Of a stretch of 64,000 bases of DNA, positions 4,235 through 51,259 are shown in pieces. The stretch's first letter is position 1; each line of letters opens with the position of its first letter. Position numbers and translations under genes: made by a program. The stretch comes from Pseudodesulfovibrio sp. (GTDB lineage: Bacteria > Desulfobacterota > Desulfovibrionia > Desulfovibrionales > Desulfovibrionaceae): the NCBI GenBank assembly GCA_016342345.1, contig JAEINO010000013.1, forward strand, positions 4,592-68,591. The letters run 5' to 3'. Under the pieces are notes generated by a model. The model saw only the letters and a program-made list of their open reading frames with translations, did no database searches and was not told the DNA's origin.

Positions 4235-7200
4235 ATGGCTGAACTCATTGGCGAAATTACTATTGTACACGGAACCGCAATTGCTGAAGGCCCTGACGGC
4301 TCTCGGGAATTGACTCAGGGCAGCCCGGTCTACGAGGGCGAAACCATCACCACTCAAGGGGCTGGTTCTGCCACGGAAATCACGTTTACTGATGGAGCGA
4401 CTCTTTCCCAGGGGCCTTCTTCTTCCGTGCGACTGGATGATTATGTCTTTGACCCGGATCAGGACACTGGCGAAATGACCCTCCAACTCATGGAAGGTTC
4501 CTTTCGCTCCGTCACGGGCAAGATTGTGGACATGAATCCTGAAGGATTCACGATAGATACTCCTTTGGCTACCATTGGAATTCGCGGAACCACAACCGGC
4601 CATAGGGTTGGCGGTCAGACCGAAGCGCATCTTGTCATTGATTTTGATGGCAAACCTGTTGTCATTCAGGGCGATGCGGGCGGTCCTCCAGCCATTATCA
4701 CTCGAGATGGCATGGGACTTACGGCCACCATTTCAGGCCTGAGCCAGCCCAGACCGGCCACGCAACGGGAGCTTGATCAGTTTGAACAGCTTTCCGGCGA
4801 GTCTCTGCAAGACGCTCCGCCCTCGGATGGGCCTGATGAAGAACAGGCTCCGGATGACGATGGCGGTGATGATGGTCAGGATACCGGAGGCGAGGCCGCT
4901 GGGTTGCTGCCTGACGGAAGTCTGGTTCCCGATTTGATGGACCCGCTTCCAGGTCAACCGCAGGGGGTTGGACCCGTCGGACCTCCCTTGTTGCCAATGC
5001 CGCCGGAAGGCCTGCCGGTTCAGGGAGGCGTTCGGGGTATAGTACCTGTAATTCCCCAACAGATTATTCCAGATGACGATGAAGGGATTGGTGACAAGGT
5101 AGTTGCCGGAACTCTGGATTTGCGCGATTTTGATTCAGATGTGACTGTTGTCATGCCCAATTCGGCAGGCTATTATTATCCCACTGATGTTCCAGATGAC
5201 AGGACAGACATCGCGTCCAACGTAGTCAATGTTTATGGTTCAACTAATCATGCCAACACGATCATCGGTAATGATGATATGAATGTTATTTTTGGCGGCA
5301 ATGAATCCGATTCCATTATAGGCGGTCTGGGGAACGATACGATTTTTTCTTCGGGCGGAGTTGATACGCTCGAGGGCGAAAACGGTTTTGACATGGTTTC
5401 CTATGCTCTTGAAGAAGCTTACGTGCAGATTGATCTTGGTGCCGGAACCGGTTTTAAAAATCATTCCAATACGACCGACGAACTGCTCACCTTTGAAGGT
5501 GCATACGGCTCTGATCATAACGACATTATCACCGGCACGACCGGTGCCAATATGCTTGTGGGCGGTGCCGGCTGGGACTTCATAGAGGGCAAGGGCGGAC
5601 AGGATTCCCTGTTTGGCGGAACCGGAAACGATCAGTTCAAGTTCACGACAACACTGGTCGATTCGGTTGTCGTTGATGGTGGGGCAGACACGGATACCAT
5701 AGAGCTTTATGGCTCTGCCAATCTGGAACTGCTCACGACAACGGGAGTGGAGGTAATCCACTTTAACGCCTCTGGTTATTCTGCGGTTTTTAACGCCTCC
5801 CTGATCAGTGATAGTTTGAATACCATCCAGGGAAACGCTCCAGGGGTTGGCGAAATCGATACTCTCACCATTAATTCGATTGTGGATGAGGATTATTCCA
5901 GTCTCACCTTCAATAACTGGGACACAAATGATGTGGTACAACTGAACGGTACCATAGGCGACGATACCATCGTGTGCACAACCGTGAACTGTACCGTGAA
6001 CGGTTTGGGCGGTGAAGACACGATCACTGACACGGCCGGCGATAACAGTATCCACGGCGATGGAGACAACGATCTCATCATAGGTGGTGCAGGAACAGAT
6101 AATTTCTTTGGAGACGCTGGAGAGGACACCCTTTCCTATCGTAACAATACCATGGGCGTTTCGGTTAATTTTGATAGCAACCAAGTCGATAATGATGGCT
6201 ACGGGACCACGGACACCTTTGATGGATTTGAAGTTTTTGAAGGGTCCAGTAAGGGTGACGTATTCTTTGCTCCCATGGACACAGCCTTCAATATTTTCGG
6301 TTCTGGCGGGAACGACACATTGACTGTGAGCTCAGACGGCATAGCGGCAGGCACATTGTTTGACGGTGGAGACGGGACCGGCGATGCCATTGACTTTGAG
6401 GGTGATGCAGACGTGAGTTCGGCCCTCGAATTCATGAATGTCGAGATACTGAATCTCATGAGCCAGAACAGTTCGCTAACATTGAACGGATCGCAGATTG
6501 ACAACCTTCCCATGGAAATCCGGGGCAGTGTCGATTCCGGCACCAGTGTGCTTGCCATCGACTTGGATGCCTCGCAAACCGTTCTTGATCTTTCTCAATT
6601 GACGTTTACCAACTGGGAATCCGGGACGGATGTCATACGTGTTTCCCGATTGGGAAGCGATGTGGATGAGGATATCGTGGGCTCCACTCAGGATGACGAA
6701 TTCCAGATGGGCTCGTTCATGACTTCTGCCGACAGCATCGACGGTGGCACCGGACATGACAATCTTTATGCCCTTTATGCCGGGGCCGCAGACGAGTTGG
6801 ACGGTATCAGGAACATAGAATACCTCAATTTGAACTGCTCGGGTGTCAATGCGTCCTATGCATTGTCCGACTCTATCGTGGCGTCAGGCGAAACACTGAC
6901 CATTGATGCCACGAACTATTCGACCGGTGATTTATCTCTGACCATTGACGGCCAGGAATCTGATGGCAAGTACAGCATTACCGGCGGTGAAGGTGATGAT
7001 TTTTATTATGGCGGGCTGCTGGGTGACACGATCCATGGTCAAGGCGGCAACGACCGAGTGGAAGGAAGGGCCGGGGATGACATCCTGAGTGGTGGACAAG
7101 GTGATGATCTTCTGTTTGGCGGCATAGGTGCCGACGAGTTGCACGGCGATTTGGGCAGCGACACATTTTACTACAGTTCCACCAATGAGGGCGGTGACAC

Positions 7201-7657: not shown

Positions 7658-7818
7658 TTAGGGAAACGCTGATTAATTCAATCTTAAGGAAGTGCTGTAG
7701 AATTGTTCGCTGGCAAGGCGCGCAAAAAAAATCAAGGCTGACGCGTGCTTCCTGCACGCTAGGGTTTGATTTTTTTGCAGCAACGAAGCCAGAGGACAAT
7801 TATGCAGTGCTTCCTTAG
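7658..7818. mobile_element. MITE family A, copy 1 (TTAG direct repeat at both ends)
   Basis: TTAG-GGAAACGCTGATTAATT ... AATTATGCAGTGCTTCC-TTAG; close match by eye to copies at 22989, 42508 and 43465; no ORF. Confidence 0.8.
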
Positions 7819-7830
7819 AGGTCTGCTTTT

Positions 7831-8517
7831 CTAGGCCTTGAATCTGTACCCGATACCCCGGACTGTTTCTATCCAGTCGGCGTATGTGCCGAGTTTTTGA
7901 CGAAGCCTGCGAACATGCGTGTCCACGGTGCGCGAATATCCCTCGAAATGAGTGTCCCAGACGGTATCCAGAAGGTTGTCACGAGTCTGTACTTTGCCGG
8001 CCCCGGAAATGAGCACGGAGAGCAGTTTGAATTCCGTGGCTGTGAGGGCAATCTCCTGGCTATCCACGCTGAGTTGGTGGGCTTCAAAGTCGATCCGCAG
8101 TCCTTCTCGTTCCCAGAGTGTGGGAGAATCTGGTTTTGGTGCTCCATAGCGGCGCAGGACGGCCTTGACTCGCAGGATGAGCTCTCGTGGCGAGAATGGT
8201 TTGACCACGTAGTCGTCTGCTCCCAGTTCCAGGCCAACGATCTTGTCAATCTCTTCGCCCTTGGCCGTAAGCATGATGACAGGGATTCGCGCCAGCGCGT
8301 TGTCTGATTTGAGGCGGCGGCAGACTTCAAGGCCATCCAGACCCGGCATCATCAGATCCAGAAGCACTATGTTGGGCTTGAAGGCCGCAGCAAGGCCAAG
8401 GCCGGATTGTCCGTCTTCTGCGGCGGCGACATCGAAACCGGCAGAGGACAGGTTGTATTTGAGCAATTCTCTTGTGTCCCTGTGATCTTCTATAACCAGA
8501 ATCTTTTGGGCTGACAC
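7831..8517 (-). CDS. OmpR/PhoB-family response regulator (PhoB-like)
   Basis: Receiver (VIEDH, LLDLMMPGLDG, LTAK, KPFSPREL) plus wHTH (SRTVDTHVRRLRQKLG, ETVRGIGYRF); GTG start with AAGGAG RBS; no kinase adjacent. Confidence 0.9.
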   Translation of the reverse strand: MSAQKILVIEDHRDTRELLKYNLSSAGFDVAAAEDGQSGLGLAAAFKPNIVLLDLMMPGLDGLEVCRRLKSDNALARIPVIMLTAKGEEIDKIVGLELGADDYVVKPFSPRELILRVKAVLRRYGAPKPDSPTLWEREGLRIDFEAHQLSVDSQEIALTATEFKLLSVLISGAGKVQTRDNLLDTVWDTHFEGYSRTVDTHVRRLRQKLGTYADWIETVRGIGYRFKA

Positions 8518-8808
8518 GCCGTACTCCTTATGAATAGTGATATCGTACCGATCTGCTATACCCGAATAACCGCCCCATGAGTGTTACAATCACGAAACAT
8601 TTCACTGATTGGGTATCCTTTTTCAGGTGCTCTCGGCAACGTGAGTTCGGGATTTGTCCAGGCTGACGGGGGATGAGTCCCGGCAGGGTAATTATATGAT
8701 TTCATGAATCAAAATAATATGGATTTGTCCATAAAGAGGTTGGTCGGGAGTGCCGATATGATTCATGAGCCCCGGAATTAATCCCAAGCCACGATTGGAG
8801 TTGCATAC

Positions 8809-9024
8809 ATGTATTATCACGGATTCGACAAGAAATTCCCTTCCGGAAGCAAGTATTGGACGATGTACGATGATCAGCTTATCGGCATGCTTTTTTCAAA
8901 AATAGTCAACAAGACCATGAGCATTGAAACCGCGTCTGCCGATTCCGAGGAGATTGTGGACGAGATGGTACAGAATCTCTTTGATTTGTGTTTTTACATT
9001 AACAAGGATTTTCACGACTGCTAG
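8809..9024 (+). CDS. Small acidic hypothetical protein (71 aa)
   Basis: ATG with GGAG RBS about 7 nt upstream; occupies an otherwise empty intergenic region; no family recognised. Confidence 0.6.
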   Translation: MYYHGFDKKFPSGSKYWTMYDDQLIGMLFSKIVNKTMSIETASADSEEIVDEMVQNLFDLCFYINKDFHDC

Positions 9025-9028
9025 TCGC

Positions 9029-9277
9029 ACAGGTTGTTGATAAAGGCCCGATTGCGGCGTTGCTGCAAAAAGTTCAAATCCTTGCGTACAAGGAGTACGC
9101 GGCGGCCTTGAGCTTTTTTTGCGTCTAGCACTCGAACCTTTCTCAACAACCTGTCAGAAGTTGAGGAAGGCCCGATTGCGGCGTTGCTGCAAAAAGTTCA
9201 AATCCTTGCGTACAAGGAGTACGCGGCGGCCTTGAGCTTTTTTTGCGTCTAGCACTCGAACTTTTCTCAACAAGCTG
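9029..9277. repeat. Family B: two head-to-tail ~125 bp MITE-like units
   Basis: Unit 1 9029-9154 has inverted ends ACAGGTTGTTGA(T/G)AAAGG; unit 2 9155-9277 has an essentially identical interior; period 124 bp; core shared with family A. Confidence 0.85.
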
Positions 9278-9314
9278 CCAGATGATTTTCTTTGTTGGAA
9301 TTGGAAAATGGTGC

Positions 9315-11003: not shown

Positions 11004-11378
11004 ATGATCAGACCGGATTTTAAAAAAATGGACGGATTAATTCCGGCCATCGCGCAGGACGCCGAGACCGGCGAAGTCCTGATGATGGCGTACATGAATG
11101 AAGAATCATGGGATAAAACACTGGAAACCGGCGAGGCCCATTATTGGAGCCGCAGCCGTCAGACGCTATGGCATAAGGGCGGTACCTCGGGCCATACTCA
11201 GAAGGTGAAATCCATCCGCATTGATTGCGACGATGACACCTTGGTGCTTCTCATTGATCAGATCGGCGGCGCGGCATGTCATCTTGGCTACCGCAGTTGC
11301 TTTTTCCGCGAATTGAAAGACGGCGAAGTCACGAAATGTGCTCCGATCGTCTTCGACCCCAAAGAGGTATATAAGTAA
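11004..11378 (+). CDS. hisI: Phosphoribosyl-AMP cyclohydrolase
   Basis: [32 protein letters not shown] motifs. Confidence 0.95.
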
Positions 11379-12256
11379 TGTCAGAACCATTTTTACGTCT
11401 CGGTGTTCCTAAAGGTTCCTTGCAGGATGCAACCCTCAAGCTGTTTGACAAGGCAGGCTGGAAGATCAAGCTGCATGATCGCAATTATTTTCCGGATATC
11501 GATGATGACCGGATCAAGTGCTCCTTGGCTCGAGCCCAGGAAATGTCCATGTATGTCGAGAATGGCACCTTTGATGTCGGCCTGACGGGCATGGACTGGA
11601 TCAAGGAAAACAAGTCCGATGTGGTCGTGGTCGATGACCTGATCTATTCCAAGGTCAGTAATCGCAAGGCCCGTTGGGTGCTTTGCGTCAAGGGCGACTC
11701 CCCTTACACCTGCCCCGAGGACCTGGAAGGCAAAACCATTTCCACCGAGCTGGTGGGGTTCACCAAGGAATATTTCGCTACCCGTGGAATCAACGTGGAA
11801 GTTTCCTTTTCCTGGGGAACCACCGAGGCCAAGGTTGTCGAGGATTTGTGCGATGCCATTGTCGAGATAACGGAGACCGGCACGACCATCAAGGCCAACG
11901 GGTTGAGGATTATTGCCGAGTTGATGCAGACAAATACCCAGTTGATTGCCAACAGGGAAGCATGGAAAGATCCGAAAAAGCGCAAGCTCATTGAGGATAT
12001 CAACCTGCTCATGCAGGGTGCGTTGCGTGCTGACAAAATGGTCGGGTTGAAAATGAATCTGCCCAAGGACAAACTGGCCGAGCTGAATGGCTCGTTGCCG
12101 AGTTTGAATTCTCCCACCGTGGCTGAATTGCAGGACCCGAATTGGTTGTCTGTCGAGGTCATGGTCGAAGAGAAGGTTGTTCGTGAGTTGATTCCCCGTC
12201 TCAGGGAATTCGGAGCGGAAGGGATAATTGAGTATCCGTTGAATAAAGTTATTTAG
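11378..12256 (+). CDS. hisG: ATP phosphoribosyltransferase (long form)
   Basis: LGVPKGSL, DAIVEITETGTTIKANGL, C-terminal ACT-like domain (GAEGIIEYP). Confidence 0.95.
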   Translation: MSEPFLRLGVPKGSLQDATLKLFDKAGWKIKLHDRNYFPDIDDDRIKCSLARAQEMSMYVENGTFDVGLTGMDWIKENKSDVVVVDDLIYSKVSNRKARWVLCVKGDSPYTCPEDLEGKTISTELVGFTKEYFATRGINVEVSFSWGTTEAKVVEDLCDAIVEITETGTTIKANGLRIIAELMQTNTQLIANREAWKDPKKRKLIEDINLLMQGALRADKMVGLKMNLPKDKLAELNGSLPSLNSPTVAELQDPNWLSVEVMVEEKVVRELIPRLREFGAEGIIEYPLNKVI

Positions 12257-12280
12257 TTTCGGCTGGAAGTGAAGATATGC

Positions 12281-12318
12281 AAGTCGGGAGAACCAGATGG
12301 TTCTCCCGACTTTTTTTG
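12281..12318 (+). terminator. Intrinsic terminator after hisG
   Basis: AAGTCGGGAGAACC-AGAT-GGTTCTCCCGACTT plus T tract. Confidence 0.9.
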
Positions 12319-12343
12319 TGGGAATGGAATCGCCTTTGGCGAT

Positions 12344-13710
12344 GATGAAGAATGAAGATGAAAGATAAGATGCCTAAAGGCAGCCCTCCCGGCGGGGTCC
12401 GTTTTTTTGTTGGCCCAAAAAAAGGGACGAAAAAAAGGGCCTTTTAGTATCTTGGCCGCTGCCTTCCATGGCTGAGAATCTGATCAAAGCGGGTCGGCTC
12501 CATGCCATGAAAGGTCTGGGCTGTACCTTCCCGTACAGTTGCTTTTCAACAATGCTCTTCTGATCCCGGTCATAAAGCCGCCTCTTCCGCGTTGTCAGCC
12601 TCTAGGCCTTTGGAGGCTTGACGCTGGGGCGCGTGAATTGGTGTTGATATTTTGAAATCCAAAAGGCCTGCAAAAACAAGCGTTTCCAATGCCTTCATAT
12701 CTATCCTAATCACACCATATTTAGTCTTTCTTACAACGACGACCAATGAGAGCAGGGGCTTAGAGCCGGTTGACACGCGTAAGTGTAGCCCGGAAAGCGT
12801 CCGGGTCCCGGATATCTTGGAGGGCAGCGGAGCGTGTTAGCGGCTCTTAGCCATCGCGGAAGGATCACAGCGCAAAAAAAGCGACTTTTGCTTACTTTTG
12901 GTCGCTTTGGCCCAAAAGTAAGTCGTGCCGGAGGTACGAAACTCTCTGTTTATTCTTTATGGCAGCCATGGGGCTGCATCCCATTCTGCTTTTATCTTAT
13001 TGTTTCGATGAAGAATGAAGATGAAAAAAAAGATGCCTAAAGGCAGCCCTCCCGGCGGGGTCCGTTTTTTTGTTGGCCCAAAAAAAGGGACGAAAAAAAG
13101 GGCCTTTTAGTAGCTTGACCGCTGCCTTCCATGGCTGAGAATCTGATCAAAGCGGGTCGGCTCCATGCCATGAAAGGTCTAGGCTGTACCTTCCCGTACC
13201 GTTGCCCTTCAACAATGCCCTTCTGATCCCGGCCACAAAGCCGCCTCTTCCGTTTTGTCAGCTTCTAGGCCTTTGGAGGCTTGACGCTGGGGCGCGTGAA
13301 TTGGTGTTGATATTTTGAAATCCAAAAGGCCAGCAAAAACAAGCGTTTCCAATGCCTTCATATCTATCCTAATCACACCATATTTAGTCTTTCTTACAAC
13401 GACGACCAATGAGAGCAGGGGCTTAGAGCCGGTTGACACGCGTAAGTGTAGCCCGGAAAGCGTCCGGGTCCCGGATATCTTGGAGGGCAGCGGAGCGTGT
13501 TAGCGGCTCTTAGCCATCGCGGAAGGATCACAGCGCAAAAAAAGCGACTTTTGCTTACTTTTGGTCGCTTTGGCCCAAAAGTAAGTCGTGCCGGAGGTAC
13601 GAAACTCTCTGTTTATTCTTTATGGCAGCCATGGGGCTGCATCCCATTCTGCTTTTATCTTATTGTTTCGATGAAGAATGAAGATGAAAAAAAAGATGCC
13701 TAAAGGCAGC
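12344..13710. repeat. Family C locus 1: two tandem 663-bp structured non-coding units
   Basis: AGATGCCTAAAGGCAGC recurs at 12368, 13031 and 13694 (period exactly 663). Units differ at about 13 positions, all in the first ~300 bp. Confidence 0.95.
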
Positions 13711-13746
13711 ACTCGGGGCAGGGTTCATTTTTTCATTGAACTCGCG

Positions 13747-14475
13747 TCACCCTACAGTCAACCCTAGGGCTGCTTCATCCACGTACCAGAGTGTTTCCTC
13801 AGCTTCCAATCGGGCGGCTGGATAGCGATCCGGGGCGGTGGGGTCGTTCATGATCTCGTGAATAAGGGATTGTTTGTCTTTGCCTGCTGCGAGGAAAAGG
13901 GCGGTCCTGGCGTTGTTCAGGACTGGAAAGGTCATGGTGATTCGGTCGATTCTTGGGATGGCTGGCGGATTGATGACCGGGACGACCCAGTCCGTGGATT
14001 CAAGAGAGTCGGTGTTCGGGAAGAGGGAGGCTGTGTGTCCATCTGTCCCCATGCCTTGCAGGGCGAAATCGAAGCGGGGTGTTCCCTTGTCACCAAAGGC
14101 ATTGACGAGATTGCGGCGTGTGTCTTCGGCTGCCCTGTCTGCGCCGAGCTCTCCTCTGATCCGGAATATGTTGGCTTCCGGGATGGGCATGTGGCTGAGC
14201 AGGGCGTCATGGGCGAGTTTGTAGTTGCTTTGGTCGTCGTCGGGCGGAACCGCTCTGTCGTCACCCCAGAATATGAGGGTTCGGTCCCACGGCACGGCGC
14301 GCCAGTATGGTTCGCATGCCAGGATCTCAAAGAACCGCTTTGGTGTGCTGCCACCGGACAGGGCAACGGTGAATCGTGCTCGATCATTCAGAGCCTGATG
14401 TGAGCATGCGATGAAAAGTTGTGCCGCGCTCTGACTCATGTCCTCGGCGTTTGCGAAGACGTGAAAATCCGCCAT
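13747..14475 (-). CDS. pgl: 6-phosphogluconolactonase
   Basis: ALSGGSTPK, FWGDDRAVPPDDDQSNY, GMGTDGHTASLFP, RITMTFPVLN; start ATG 14475. Confidence 0.92.
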   Translation of the reverse strand: MADFHVFANAEDMSQSAAQLFIACSHQALNDRARFTVALSGGSTPKRFFEILACEPYWRAVPWDRTLIFWGDDRAVPPDDDQSNYKLAHDALLSHMPIPEANIFRIRGELGADRAAEDTRRNLVNAFGDKGTPRFDFALQGMGTDGHTASLFPNTDSLESTDWVVPVINPPAIPRIDRITMTFPVLNNARTALFLAAGKDKQSLIHEIMNDPTAPDRYPAARLEAEETLWYVDEAALGLTVG

Positions 14476-14503
14476 GGTGTTCCCTCTAGGCAAATGATGA
14501 TGT

Positions 14504-22215: not shown

Positions 22216-22992
22216 ATGAAGTTGGCGTTTGCGGGAAAGGGCGGCGTTGGAAAAACCTCGTTAACTGCATGGGTGGCTGATTGGCTGGCCCGGAACGGCA
22301 GGAATGTCTGGCTGATTGATGCGGATACGGCCCTTTCTTTGGGGCAGGCCTCCGGGTTGCAACTTGAGGCCTTGCCGGAACCGCTGGTTCGTCGCGGGGA
22401 CCTGATCCGTGAGCGCATCCATGCCAGTGGTTTTTTGAATCTGAACCCTGACGTAGGCGATTTGCCGGAGACCCTGGCTGTGGATGTTCCAATGGTCGGT
22501 GCGGCCGTGGATGGAGTCACGCCGGGGCGCAAGCGGCTCATCGTCATGGGTGCTGTGACCAATGCTGGCGGCGGGTGTGCCTGCGATGCCAACGCGCTGC
22601 TCAAAGCACTTCTGGCGCATATTGTCATGGATCGTGACGAATGGGTGCTGGTGGACTTGGAGGCCGGGGTCGAACATCTGGGGCGTGGCACTGCGACCCA
22701 TGTGGACGGGCTGGTGGTGGTTTCGGAGCCGAGCATGCGAAGCTTGCAGACCGGGGCCGAGGTTGGGCGCATGGCAACGGACCTGGGGCTGAGCAATCAG
22801 GTGTTGGTCGTCAATCGTTTCATGGGCGGAGAACTGCCCAGAATCGACGGTCTGCCCGAGTGGACCATAACCGTGCCGTCCATGCCGGGGCTGATCGAGC
22901 GTCAGATGATGGACGCATCCGTGCTTGGGCTGCCTGAGGCTGACACGCTGGATGCAATGGTTGAAAAGTTGCTTGGCAGGCTGGGGCTCTAG
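22216..22992 (+). CDS. cooC: CODH nickel-insertion ATPase CooC
   Basis: GKGGVGKT Walker A, GGGCAC metal motif, DLEAGVEHLGRG. Confidence 0.93.
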   Translation: MKLAFAGKGGVGKTSLTAWVADWLARNGRNVWLIDADTALSLGQASGLQLEALPEPLVRRGDLIRERIHASGFLNLNPDVGDLPETLAVDVPMVGAAVDGVTPGRKRLIVMGAVTNAGGGCACDANALLKALLAHIVMDRDEWVLVDLEAGVEHLGRGTATHVDGLVVVSEPSMRSLQTGAEVGRMATDLGLSNQVLVVNRFMGGELPRIDGLPEWTITVPSMPGLIERQMMDASVLGLPEADTLDAMVEKLLGRLGL

Positions 22993-23148
22993 GGAAGCTT
23001 TGCATAATTGTCCGCTGGCTTCGTTGCTTTAAAAACTTCAAATCCTAGCGTACAGGAAGTACGCGTCGGCCTTGATGTTTTCTTGCGCCTTGCCAGCGAA
23101 TAATTCTACAGCACTTCCTGAAAATTGAATTAATCAGTACTTCCCTAG
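22989..23148. mobile_element. MITE family A, copy 2 (reverse orientation; CTAG overlaps the cooC stop)
   Basis: CTAG-GGAAGCTTTGCATAATT ... AATTAATCAGTACTTCC-CTAG; most diverged copy. Confidence 0.8.
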
Positions 23149-23152
23149 CCGA

Positions 23153-23374
23153 TTACTGTGTGGCTTTTTCCTTTTCCCTGAAGCCCCAATGCCCCTCGGG
23201 AATTTCGAGGTACATGGATTCCACACAGGAGCCTTGAATTTCGATCCTCATGCCCAGTCTGCCGGATTCTTCGTGCCAGAATACCTGTTGTGTCAGGCTT
23301 TCTCGCAAGTACGAGTAAGGCATGCCGTAGCTGATGCACAGCGCCTTGACCTGATGGCCAATGGAAATCTGCAC
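23153..23374 (-). CDS. Small hypothetical protein, start uncertain
   Basis: Protein-like stretch ...KALCISYGMPYSYLRESLTQQVFWHEESGRLGMRIEIQG...; possible starts GTG 23374 or ATG 23323; no clear RBS. Confidence 0.45.
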   Translation of the reverse strand: MQISIGHQVKALCISYGMPYSYLRESLTQQVFWHEESGRLGMRIEIQGSCVESMYLEIPEGHWGFREKEKATQ

Positions 23375-42362: not shown

Positions 42363-42507
42363 GATCGACTCCTTCTATGATTGATGAAAACTCGTGTTCG
42401 CATAAGATTCACGGATTCTAAACGAATTTCTCAGGATTCTCAATTCTATATATGGTGTGTCGGGGGTTGGCAGTTATTATCTGGTCAGGCCGGGACACAG
42501 AAAATTG

Positions 42508-42667
42508 CTAGGGAAGTACTGATTAATTCAATCTTCAGGAAGTGCTGTAGAATTGTTCGCTGGCAAGGCGCGCAAAAAAGTCAAGACTGACGCGTGCTTC
42601 CTGCACGCTAGGGTTTGATTTTTTTACAGCAACGAAGCCAGCGGACAATTATGCAGTGCTTCCCTAG
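42508..42667. mobile_element. MITE family A, copy 3 (CTAG overlaps the coaX stop)
   Basis: CTAG-GGAAGTACTGATTAATT ... AATTATGCAGTGCTTCC-CTAG. Confidence 0.85.
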
Positions 42668-43434
42668 CTGTTGTAATACGCCATCCACAGCCCTTCCATG
42701 ACCAGATCGGGCCTGAGTTCGTCGATGGAGTCGCCTACTTGGGCGATGGTCCGGGCCAGACCGCCGGTAGCGACCACAAAAGGGTTGTCCATCTGGGCGG
42801 AGAGTTTGTTAACAAGGCCGTCAATCATGGACGCAAAGCCGAAGACAAGACCTTGATTGAGGCACTCTTCAGTGGTTTTACCCCAGGAGAGGGTCTTGTT
42901 TGCAAGCGTAAGATCGACTTTGGGGAGTTTTGCCGTGCCAGCCGACAGGGCGGCTGTCGAGGAGAGTACGCCCGGGCAGATCAACCCCCCCTTGAAGGCG
43001 TTGCCCATGAGGCAGGCCAGGGTGGTGGCTGTCCCGAAGTCGATGACGATGATGTTTTCCGCGTCATAGGTCAGTCGGGCGGACAGGCAGCCCACAAGGA
43101 TGTCCATGCCCACCTGTTCGGGGCGGGCATATTCGTTGTCCAGGTCGATTTTCAGATCGCGGCCCGCAAAGATTGCCTCGCATCCCAGAAAACGCCGGGT
43201 CATTCGCGTGATGAGTGGATCAAGAGGCGGTACCACCGATGAGATGACACATGCTTCTATATCGCTTGGGTCAACGCCTTCTCGGTTGAGGATGGCCTCG
43301 ATCTTGAGGCCCCAGTCGTCAGCCGTATTGGCTGGACGGGTCGGTAGCGTATAACTTTCACCCAACCCCTCGTCATCAGCCAGACCGATTTTTGTGTTGG
43401 TGTTTCCTGCGTCAAACAGCAGAATCTTGCCCAT
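42664..43434 (-). CDS. coaX: Type III pantothenate kinase
   Basis: DAGNTN, VSSVVP, GMD, IDFGTATT, ATGG motifs. Confidence 0.93.
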   Translation of the reverse strand: MGKILLFDAGNTNTKIGLADDEGLGESYTLPTRPANTADDWGLKIEAILNREGVDPSDIEACVISSVVPPLDPLITRMTRRFLGCEAIFAGRDLKIDLDNEYARPEQVGMDILVGCLSARLTYDAENIIVIDFGTATTLACLMGNAFKGGLICPGVLSSTAALSAGTAKLPKVDLTLANKTLSWGKTTEECLNQGLVFGFASMIDGLVNKLSAQMDNPFVVATGGLARTIAQVGDSIDELRPDLVMEGLWMAYYNS

Positions 43435-43464
43435 GGTGTTCTCCTTGGCCGCACTTTGAGGCAG

Positions 43465-43625
43465 CTAGGGAAGCACTGCATAATTGCCCTCTGGCTTCGT
43501 TGCTGCAAAAAAAATCAAACCCTAGCGTGCAGGAAGCACGCGTCAGCCTTGATTTTTTTGCGTGCCTTGCCAGCGAACAATTCTACAGCACTTCCTGAAG
43601 ATTGAATTAATCAGCGTTTCCCTAG
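43465..43625. mobile_element. MITE family A, copy 4 (reverse orientation, upstream of coaX)
   Basis: CTAG-GGAAGCACTGCATAATT ... AATTAATCAGCGTTTCC-CTAG; reverse complement differs from copy 1 by about 3 substitutions plus homopolymer lengths. Confidence 0.85.
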
Positions 43626-43698
43626 GGTTTTTCTACCTTTTTTTGCGTAAATGGCAAGCTGTTGCGATTAGAATATTCAAGACATTTCTGCAAATGAA

Positions 43699-50171: not shown

Positions 50172-51259
50172 TGATGAAGATTGAAGAATAAAGAAAAAAG
50201 ATAAGATGCCTAAAGGCAACCCTCCCGGTGGGGTCCGTTTTTTTGTTGGCCCAAAAAAAGGGACGAAAAAAAGGGCCTTTTAGTATCTTTGCCGCTGCCT
50301 TCCATGGCTGAGAATCTGATCAAAGCGGGTCGGCTCCATGCCATGAAAAGTCTGGGCTGCACCTTTTCGTACTGTTGCCCTTTAACAATGCCCTTCTGAT
50401 GCCGACAAGAAAGCCGCCTCTTCCACTTTGTCAGCTTCTAGGCCTTTGGAGGCTTAACGCTGGGGCGTACGAACTGGTGTTGGAGTTTTGAAATCCAAAA
50501 GGCTGGTCAAACAAGCGGTCCTAAAGCCTTCATATCTATCCCAACCACACCATATTCAGTATTTCTTACAACGACGACCAATGAGAGCAGGGGCTTAGAG
50601 CCGGTTGACACGTGAAGTGTAGGCCGGAAAGCGTTCGGGTACCGGATATCTTGAAGGGCAGTGGAGCGTGTTAGCGGCTCTTAGCCATCGCGGATGGATC
50701 ACAGCGCTAAAAAAGCGATTTTTGCTTACTTTTGGTCGCTTTGGCCCAAAAGTAAGTCGTGCCGGAGGTGCGAAACTCTATGTTTGCTCTTTATCGCAGC
50801 TGCAGGCTGCATCCCATTTGGTCTTTATCTCATATTCTGAGATGAAGAGATAAGATGCCTAAAGGCAGCCCTCCTGGCGGGGTCCGTTTTTTTGTTGGCC
50901 CAAAAAAAGGGACGAAAAAAAGGGCCTTGCATTATCTTGGCCGCTGCCTTCCATGGCTGAGAATCTGATCAAAGCGGGTCGGCTCCATCCCATGAAAAGT
51001 CTAGGCTGCGCCTTTCCGTACCGTTGCGCTTTAACAATGCCCTTCTGATCCCGACAAGAAAGCCGCCTCTTCCACTTTGTCAGCTTCTAGGCCTTTGGAG
51101 GCTTAACGCTGGAGGGAGGCGATTTGGCATCCGTGTTTTGAAATCCAAAAGGCTGGCAAAAACAAGCGGTTCCAATGCCTTCATATCTATCCCAACCACA
51201 CCAAAATTAGCATTTCTTACAACGACGACCAATGAGAGCAGGGGTTTAGAGTAGGTTGA
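50172..51259. repeat. Family C locus 2: one full 649-bp unit plus a 3'-truncated ~405-bp unit
   Basis: AGATGCCTAAAGGCA at 50204 and 50853; colinear with the 12368 unit; second copy loses similarity after GGTTGA at about 51259. Confidence 0.93.

Follow-up and report, generated by a model that had tools for sequence, protein, structure and literature searches.

Several families of dispersed non-coding repeats are known from bacterial genomes, among them BOX of Streptococcus pneumoniae (boxA-boxB(n)-boxC) and ERIC/IRU of enterobacteria, which are modular and intergenic, measure about 100-200 nt, fold into stable stem-loops and often lie in transcribed 3' or intergenic regions; we know of no transposase dedicated to either. 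REP units are hairpins of 20-40 nt (about 100 nt as REPIN doublets) that co-occur with a RAYT (Y1) gene, and REP/BIME protect upstream mRNA from 3' exonucleases, while IS110-type insertion sequences use them as targets. Class C group II introns, whose RNA part is 400-700 nt long and of which derivatives lacking an open reading frame (ORF) exist, insert just 3' of intrinsic terminator hairpins in transcription sense. Here we describe a repeat element of about 560-660 nt found in a 64,000-nt stretch of DNA from Pseudodesulfovibrio sp. (GenBank assembly GCA_016342345.1, contig JAEINO010000013.1, positions 4,592 to 68,591; hereafter the window), where copies stand head to tail in the gap between the ATP phosphoribosyltransferase gene hisG (11378-12256, +) and a convergent 6-phosphogluconolactonase-like gene (13747-14493, -), and again near 50 kb (Table 1). 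The element is modular, dispersed in many copies with turnover between genomes, situated after terminators, and folded on one strand under selection. The reading we favour, with some confidence and from comparative analysis, is that this non-coding repeat of Pseudodesulfovibrio has the fold of an RNA read in the + direction and acts in cis at transcript ends.

Like BOX and ERIC, the element is multicopy, intergenic, non-coding, modular and stably folded, and related genomes differ in how many copies they have and where. It differs from them in being three to five times larger and built of two domains that also occur separately, in having inverted H-type pseudoknot caps at both ends, long-range helices that covary across species and head-to-tail arrays, in lacking any sequence similarity to them, and in being essentially restricted to one genus of Desulfovibrionales. 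With REP, BIME and REPIN it shares a multicopy, extragenic placement after genes, often between convergent genes; unlike REP and REPIN, it occurs without any Y1-family transposase gene in five genomes rich in long copies, and its fold is far more elaborate. The likeness to class C group II introns is one of behaviour only, namely a place just after intrinsic terminators, sense orientation and a similar size, whereas the GUGYG start, a domain V-like 34-nt hairpin and a branch-site domain are all absent and no Rfam intron model matched at E up to 10. The element is an undescribed, unusually large and elaborate structured intergenic repeat, absent from Rfam and from the literature we searched, where nothing on such repeats in Pseudodesulfovibrio was found. 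When the whole window was compared with Rfam 15, whose families include riboswitches, ribozymes and large non-coding RNAs such as OLE, GOLLD, HEARO, ROOL and raiA, no family matched at its gathering score; with the limit relaxed to E up to 10, positions 12200-13800 gave only sub-threshold matches (13-26 bits, with cut-offs of 37-128), mostly on the hisG terminator, and seven related loci likewise gave no credible match. Plasmid and phage collections contained no match to the element.

Helix 2 and the conserved fold

The original prediction placed two long-range helices inside the repeat unit, one of 13 base pairs (helix 1) and one of about 20 base pairs (helix 2), argued that variation between copies preserves structure, and took the position of one arm of helix 1 inside the loop of helix 2 to imply a pseudoknot or a switch between two folds. 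We found that the observation is correct and that the interpretation stands in part: helix 2 and a conserved fold hold, and helix 1 with its switch does not. Helix 2 forms the base of an irregular hairpin of about 95 nt. In the window copy, GGCTTAGAGCCG (12757-12768) pairs with CGGCTCTTAGCC (12841-12852) around a U.U mismatch (T12761/T12848) that had gone unmentioned, and past the bulged G12769 the inner part, TTGACACG (12770-12777) with CGTGTTAG (12833-12840), includes two G-U pairs and ends the left arm at 12777 instead of 12778, for a total of 19 standard pairs. As had been noticed, both arms are unchanged in the 50-kb copy (50593-50688), where the enclosed loop differs, and the truncated copy at 50829-51259 terminates inside the left arm.

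Across at least six lineages of the genus the two arms are written in wholly different letters with the pairing always kept. The left and right arms read GGCUUAGAGCCGGU and AGCGGCUCUUAGCC in the source genome, GCGUCGCAGCGCCAGU and ACUGGCGCGCGGCGC in relatives G017, G003, G002 and G054, GCGGCUUGGAGGCAGU and ACUGCCUCCUGCCGC in G007, ACCCUAGAGCCCGU and ACGGGCUCUUGGGU in G001 and G041, GACCUUAGAGCCUGU and ACAGGCUCUUGGGUC in G004, and GGCCUAGAGCCUGU and ACAGGCUCUUGGCC in G006. Helix 2 was assessed by duplex energies with cross-lineage controls, in place of per-column counts: arms paired with their own partners gave -42.4 kcal/mol (mean of lineage means), compared with -26.5 +/- 5.7 when the partners came from another lineage. 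RNAalifold, given 11 diverse hairpins, predicted a nested rod of 28 pairs, of which 16 show compensatory changes. The inner helices P2c and P2d covary too, with AAG/CUU giving way to C-G and U-A pairs in other lineages. On this comparative evidence helix 2 is real and under selection, and the claim of structure-preserving variation is upheld by compensatory change across lineages. While the remainder of helix 2 changes, the U.U mismatch (12761/12848, with equivalents at loci L072, L073, L074, L078 and L141) and its flanks AGAGCC/GGCUCU are kept in six lineages, which suggests a recognition site, a candidate for contact with a protein or for a tertiary contact.

Some of the smaller hairpins in the unit had been said to tolerate only wobble or loop changes. 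P2d (TCCGG/CCGGA, 12800-12812) is real but not limited in this way, as the compensatory variants TTCGA/TCGAA and TCCGA/TCGGA (UUCGA/UCGAA and UCCGA/UCGGA in the RNA) occur within the source genome. The stem GCAGCC/GGCTGC (12962-12977) is kept in most copies with a variable loop, except that one stem base differs in both copies on contig C48 (GGCTGA). The proposed pairings AGCYTCTAG/TTGGAGGCT and ACAC/GTGT can be drawn, but the bases they need are part of helices with better support.

The whole unit folded more stably than shuffles of it did, with a z-score of -5.98 on the + strand and -4.36 on the - strand. In an alignment of 35 elements, the set on which the pairing percentages and strand counts below are also based, 207 cells of the modelled helices were changed on both sides, compared with 86.8 +/- 7.1 in shuffles, and none of 500 shuffles reached 207. 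The modelled helices are paired in 80.1% of cells, as against 40-53% when the partners are slid. P-A alone is paired in 91.7% of cells, and it is extended by PC and PB, which are complementary in every lineage with different letters (UUCAAG/CUUGAA, GAUCGGGGG/CCCCCGAUC, UGAUCGG/CCGAUCA, GGAUCA/UGAUCC and CGCUCA/UGAGCG); their own energy is -17.1, compared with -10.8 across lineages. Comparative pairing supports a conserved fold rather than neutral repeat DNA.

The + strand is the folded strand, because it is there that G-U wobbles occur. Among the copies of the source genome, the modelled pairs contain 108 G-U cells and 16 A-C cells; all three changes in the helix 2 right arm of the C7 copies give G-U on + (C.A on -), and many helix 2 substitutions in the G003 copies do likewise. 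The arms of helix 2 pair better on + than on - in 33 of the 35 elements, and the element as a whole folds better on + in 28 of them.

A pseudoknot topology does exist in the element, but it sits in the caps at the 5' and 3' ends and not at helix 1. In the 5' cap, the loop of stem S1 (GGCCC) pairs with GGGCC beyond an A-rich linker, an H-type arrangement in which both stems covary, the loop pairing being GGCCG/CGGCC, AAGCA/UGCUU or CGCCC/GGGCG in other copies. In the canonical 3' cap this architecture is inverted, a mirror image made of two interleaved stems that both covary. Some long copies carry an alternative 3' end module, which matches the 5' end module in reverse orientation (75% identity over 76-80 nt by BLAST); on contig C33, for example, positions 4589-4664 match unit positions 23-97 in reverse. 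A direct pairing of the two ends, CCCUCCCGGCGGG with CCCGCCGGGAGGG, was rejected because other lineages do not conserve it and only the alternative 3' cap makes it perfect.

Table 1. Features of the repeat element in the window (window coordinates).
Feature	Position	Strand	Description
Unit copy 1 (663 nt)	12344-13006	+	Purine-rich leader, 5' cap, 5' domain, variable linker, 3' domain (hairpin), 3' cap, pyrimidine-rich tail with hairpin
5' cap	12383-12441	+	GC hairpin GCCCUCCCGGCGGGG; U-run/A-run stem S1, 12397-12408 with 12417-12428; S1 loop GGCCC (12412-12416) with GGGCC (12437-12441)
PC segment	12452-12474	+	Holds helix 1 left arm (12456-12468); conserved partner is PB, 12604-12619
P-A 5' strand, AGAAUCUGA	12475-12483	+	Pairs with 12595-12603; encloses variable insert
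P-A 3' strand and PB	12595-12619	+	P-A 3' strand 12595-12603, then PB 12604-12619; PB forms local hairpin AGGCCU/AGGCUU or extends P-A via PC
Helix 2 left arm	12757-12777	+	12 pairs, bulged G12769, 8 pairs
Inner hairpin, P2c and P2d	12789-12824	+	P2c is CCC/GGG (12789-12791 with 12822-12824) and AAG/CUU (12795-12797 with 12816-12818) around a 3x3 internal loop
P2d, UCCGG/CCGGA	12800-12804 with 12808-12812	+	Inner part of the helix 2 hairpin
Helix 1 right arm	12818-12830	+	Overlaps P2c 3' strand and hairpin internal loop
Helix 2 right arm	12833-12852	+	
3' cap	12880-12939	+	Inverted counterpart of 5' cap; AGCGAC/GUCGCU (12880-12885 with 12901-12906) interleaved with CUUACUUUUG/CAAAAGUAAG (12891-12900 with 12913-12922)
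Terminal hairpin of 3' cap, UCGU/ACGA	12923-12939	+	
Tail hairpin, GCAGCC-AUGG-GGCUGC	12962-12977	+	Followed by U-rich tract; terminator-like on + strand
Unit copy 2 (663 nt)	13007-13669	+	98% identity to copy 1; head to tail
64-nt stub	13670-13733	+	Diverged leader and start of 5' cap, 88% identity; abuts end of the convergent 6-phosphogluconolactonase-like gene
Unit copy 3	50180-50828	+	90% identity to copy 1; second array
Copy 4, truncated	50829-51259	+	Second array; stops at unit position 430, inside helix 2 left arm

Copies, modules and neighbouring genes

The source genome (4.15 Mb in 149 contigs) contains 52 whole or partial matches to the unit, 16 of which cover the region from helix 1 to helix 2. 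Short forms consist of unit positions 1-286 or 40-286 (tandem, with a period of about 365 nt) or 40-150 (300-nt period), and three copies have an extra insert of about 95 nt after position 596. Arrays mix long and short forms as well as diverged subfamilies, such as an 81% copy beside an 89% copy on contig C106, and are therefore not simple recent duplications. A rolling-circle origin of the arrays was dropped on the same ground and because most of the short last copies are a separate short form (unit 1-286) rather than 5'-anchored truncations. A coding element was likewise rejected, since the ORFs of the unit reach no more than 76 aa and are disrupted by indels between copies. Five contigs of the source assembly (C34, C69, C141, C48 and C106) begin or end inside repeats of this family, which is the probable cause of breaks in the assembly; more copies probably exist than we counted. 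This genome is rich in non-coding repeats, and two more short families (A and B), with inverted copies present, occur in the window at 7659-9308, 22989-23161 and 42495-43634.

When 41 genomes of the genus and of same-order relatives were searched, 24 contained matches to the unit, and the element of a relative was strongly matched in 26 of 42 Pseudodesulfovibrio genomes. Full two-domain elements are present in G017 (P. pelocollis), G003, G002, G054 and G007, and more diverged ones in G001, G014, G041, G004 and G006. Modules consisting of the 5' domain only or the 3' domain only are spread through the genus, in tandem and in mixed arrays as well, and outside the genus only an end module of about 60 nt was found. 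The same cap architecture occurs outside Desulfovibrionales in the Gammaproteobacteria metagenome-assembled genome (MAG) SE1509 (L105 2194-2295 and L113 7282-7364), where GCCCTCCCGGCGGGG is followed by a U-run/A-run hairpin, and the loop of this hairpin pairs with a box past an A-rich linker. A second MAG, JBDRSO01, is labelled Pseudomonadota yet bears a Pseudodesulfovibrio-type module. Four of its contigs have an IS110-family insertion (Pfam DEDD_Tnp_IS110, E = 2e-7) at the same point of the 5' cap, after GTAACCAAAGAA (L100 7445-8000, and near position 100 of L101, L112 and L120), so that the cap is the IS110 target there.

Element loci in the source genome are typically gaps between convergent genes, and in most cases the upstream gene's own terminator hairpin and T-run stand a few bases before the element. 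Where a neighbouring ORF could be called, the element is co-oriented with the gene on its 5' side at 17 of 21 loci. A strand bias by GC skew is weaker, with 14 of 22 loci on the G-rich strand, and targeting of a replication strand, as in IS200/605, is unsupported by these counts. Every unit also ends with its own hairpin and U-rich run on +. The hisG terminator (GCCGGGAGAAGC...GCTTCTCCCGGC plus T-run) is conserved across the genus, and the gap behind it (window 12257-13746, loci L134-L162) is a hot spot rather than the site of a single inherited insertion, because at least 14 species carry modules there in different forms (long, short or 3'-only) and in either orientation.

An RNA-level or a DNA-level repeat

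We believe that the element is probably a selfish repeat of the intergenic kind to which REP, ERIC and BOX belong, that its architecture is new, and that it probably works at the level of RNA. Its + strand would be transcribed when the polymerase reads through from the upstream gene, or as part of a 3'-extended transcript of that gene. Acting in cis on transcript ends, the caps and rods would bar the way to 3' exonucleases, serve as insulators of termination where genes converge, or do both. The element would persist and multiply as a selfish repeat whose new copies land after terminator-like hairpins, and we propose that head-to-tail arrays of diverged copies arise because each unit's own end hairpin would serve as the next landing site. 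To our knowledge, no enzyme is known for such terminator-directed landing.

Several observations weigh against this proposal. In other species the hisG gap holds elements antisense to hisG, though these may be sense to the convergent gene. The 5' cap opens with a terminator-like hairpin and U7 on +, which could halt read-through before the body of the element. Caps that are mutually inverted at 75% identity are what a recognition site at the DNA level, in the form of terminal inverted repeats, would look like, and single-stranded DNA also tolerates wobbles, as G-T. As to the fold itself, the MAFFT alignment contains a one-base register shift of helix 2 between lineages, leaving its per-column score at only 69.6% paired, and the copies are related by descent, so that the shuffle controls overstate significance.

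The strongest competing explanation, which we nevertheless regard as unlikely, is a DNA-level mobile element, either a miniature inverted-repeat transposable element (MITE) or a foldback transposon, that is non-autonomous and whose folded single-stranded ends are recognized by a transposase or recombinase encoded elsewhere, with the fold serving transposition. The inverted caps correspond to the terminal inverted repeats of a MITE, and the G-T wobbles are compatible with single-stranded DNA. Mobility of this kind would also fit a copy number that ranges from none to dozens between species, the presence of different forms and orientations in the same gap among species, arrays assembled from diverged copies, and the use of the cap as a target by an IS110-family element of another genome, since such elements also target other repeats. 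Yet no partner gene tracks the element. A search for the Y1 transposase (PF01797) in 42 genomes of the genus gave no match in G003, G002, G017, G054 and G007, despite 6-15 strong element matches in each and an abundance of long copies, and a RAYT/IS200 partner was rejected on this ground. Reverse transcriptase (RVT_1) is absent from the element-carrying genomes G003, G054, G007, G057, G006 and G004. A reverse-transcriptase partner, or membership among group II introns, was rejected because the enzyme is missing from many element-rich genomes and no intron model matches. Two relatives do have reverse-transcriptase genes near long elements, at distances of 1.5 kb and about 7 kb (G002:C22:98776-99318 and G017:C62:352-939); since most element-rich genomes are without one, this proximity is probably coincidence.

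Nor did we find in the source genome a copy with an ORF between its caps (relatives were searched non-exhaustively), and no target-site duplication could be defined from the flanks, the ends being purine- or pyrimidine-rich and ill-defined. The long internal covarying helices, P-A and the 95-nt hairpin, exceed what end recognition needs, and orientation follows the upstream gene better than it follows the replication strand. The copies do not make up an integron cassette array, as they are scattered over about 20 loci on many contigs (no search for intI was made), and the attC core candidates in the helix 2 arms, GTTGACA and GTTAGCG, deviate from GTTRRRY at the sixth base.

Helix 1, the proposed switch and related RNAs

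The complementarity claimed for helix 1 is present in the window: CCGCTGCCTTCCA (12456-12468) can form 13 contiguous pairs, one of them U-G, with TGGAGGGCAGCGG (12818-12830) at a distance of 349 nt, and the right arm is indeed located within the helix 2 loop. If helix 1 forms in the source lineage, it would dock the two domains together, the 5' one on the hairpin of the 3' one, and make the element a two-state RNA switch, whether through a pseudoknot or by taking the place of PC-PB and P2c. A run of at least 13 pairs with no more than one G-U arose in just 1.7% of 300 dinucleotide shuffles of the unit. Helix 1 is present, in full or with one mismatch, in 14 of the 16 long copies of the source genome, where its duplex energy of -16 to -28.5 kcal/mol (mean -23.9) is stronger than that of PC-PB (-16.3), and its exclusion of two conserved helices is the geometry of a switch. 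In about half of the copies of G006, moreover, the same two segments show a complementarity of 11-13 bp in other letters (CAGGAU/AUCCUG and GCCCG/CGGGC).

Against this, the 9-pair core of helix 1 is paired in only 54.6% of cells across the 35 elements and is essentially limited to the 14 copies of the source genome's main subfamily. Its own and cross-lineage energies do not differ (-15.8 and -14.3). The left arm varies in that subfamily at its first base only (C to U, five copies), and the right arm has five variable positions, at which substitutions go uncompensated and for the most part create C.A mismatches (7 of 16 copies have A in place of G at 12820). In two diverged copies of the source genome, C106b and C146, helix 1 is lost and the rest of the fold is kept; the energies fall to -13.1 and -13.8 kcal/mol, and 5 of the 13 positions are mismatched in C106b. 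The helix is absent from the lineages of G017/G003/G002/G054, G007, G001/G014/G041 and G004, and the minimum-energy fold of the unit does without it. Replacing helix 1 with local alternatives raised the paired cells to 82.6% and the covariation score from 0.199 to 0.236, and its right arm coincides with the 3' strand of P2c, a covarying helix of the inner hairpin, and the adjoining internal loop.

Comparison across lineages thus shows helix 1 to be not conserved but a feature of one subfamily, with arms that belong to other conserved helices. The idea of a switch is weak because the 13-bp helix is not kept, although a lineage-specific alternative retains a little plausibility because of the comparable complementarity in G006. 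We think it quite unlikely that helix 1 forms a docked pseudoknot or switch in the source lineage. It is just as doubtful that in some lineages (the source genome and G006) a large two-domain RNA of about 560 nt would toggle between a closed and a helix 1-docked form and so control the fate of the upstream transcript's 3' end. The same low expectation applies to the proposal in its widest form, in which a terminator-seeking mobile repeat would carry a new class of structured bacterial RNA whose two ends bear pseudoknot caps prone to triple-helix formation.

Very improbable, in our estimate, is a family of independently transcribed RNA genes acting in trans (as regulatory small RNA, protein sponge or ribozyme), each unit with its own promoter and terminator: a hairpin and U-rich run do close each unit on +, its size and fold complexity resemble those of known large bacterial non-coding RNAs, it has invariant single-stranded motifs as candidate binding sites (CCCUCCC at the 5' end, GAUCACAG and CAAUG), and a -35/-10-like pair is conserved (TTGGCC or TTGACC, 16-17 nt, GAGAAT), but these promoter-like hexamers lie inside the covarying PC and P-A, where a start would remove covarying strands, no ribozyme or other Rfam family was significant at E up to 10, and the occurrence of lone and truncated modules, and of both orientations at a single locus, fits a selfish repeat better than a gene family. 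The hexamers belong to a conserved block, CTTGGCC (or CTTGACC)-N16/17-GAGAAT, at 12451-12480 and 13114-13143 that resembles a sigma-70 promoter; because it overlaps covarying helices, it is probably not one. A sigma-54 promoter in this block was ruled out by its spacing and GC element, and a CsrA sponge, with GGA in hairpin loops, was dropped when the GGA of the terminal hairpin proved not to be conserved in G001, G014, G004 and G006.

Large, elaborately folded bacterial non-coding RNAs with covariation across many lineages are rare, and OLE, GOLLD, ROOL and HEARO have each led to new biology. The present family offers strong comparative support, a clear strand and a reproducible habit, after terminators and between convergent genes. 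If it moves by a terminator-targeted route without a transposase or reverse transcriptase of its own, that route would be new. For annotation, the family probably accounts for the numerous long stretches without genes, and for the contig breaks, in assemblies of Pseudodesulfovibrio. Should it work at transcript ends, the family would be a ready-made system in which to follow, in sulfate reducers, the co-option of selfish repeats into terminator, insulator or stability modules.

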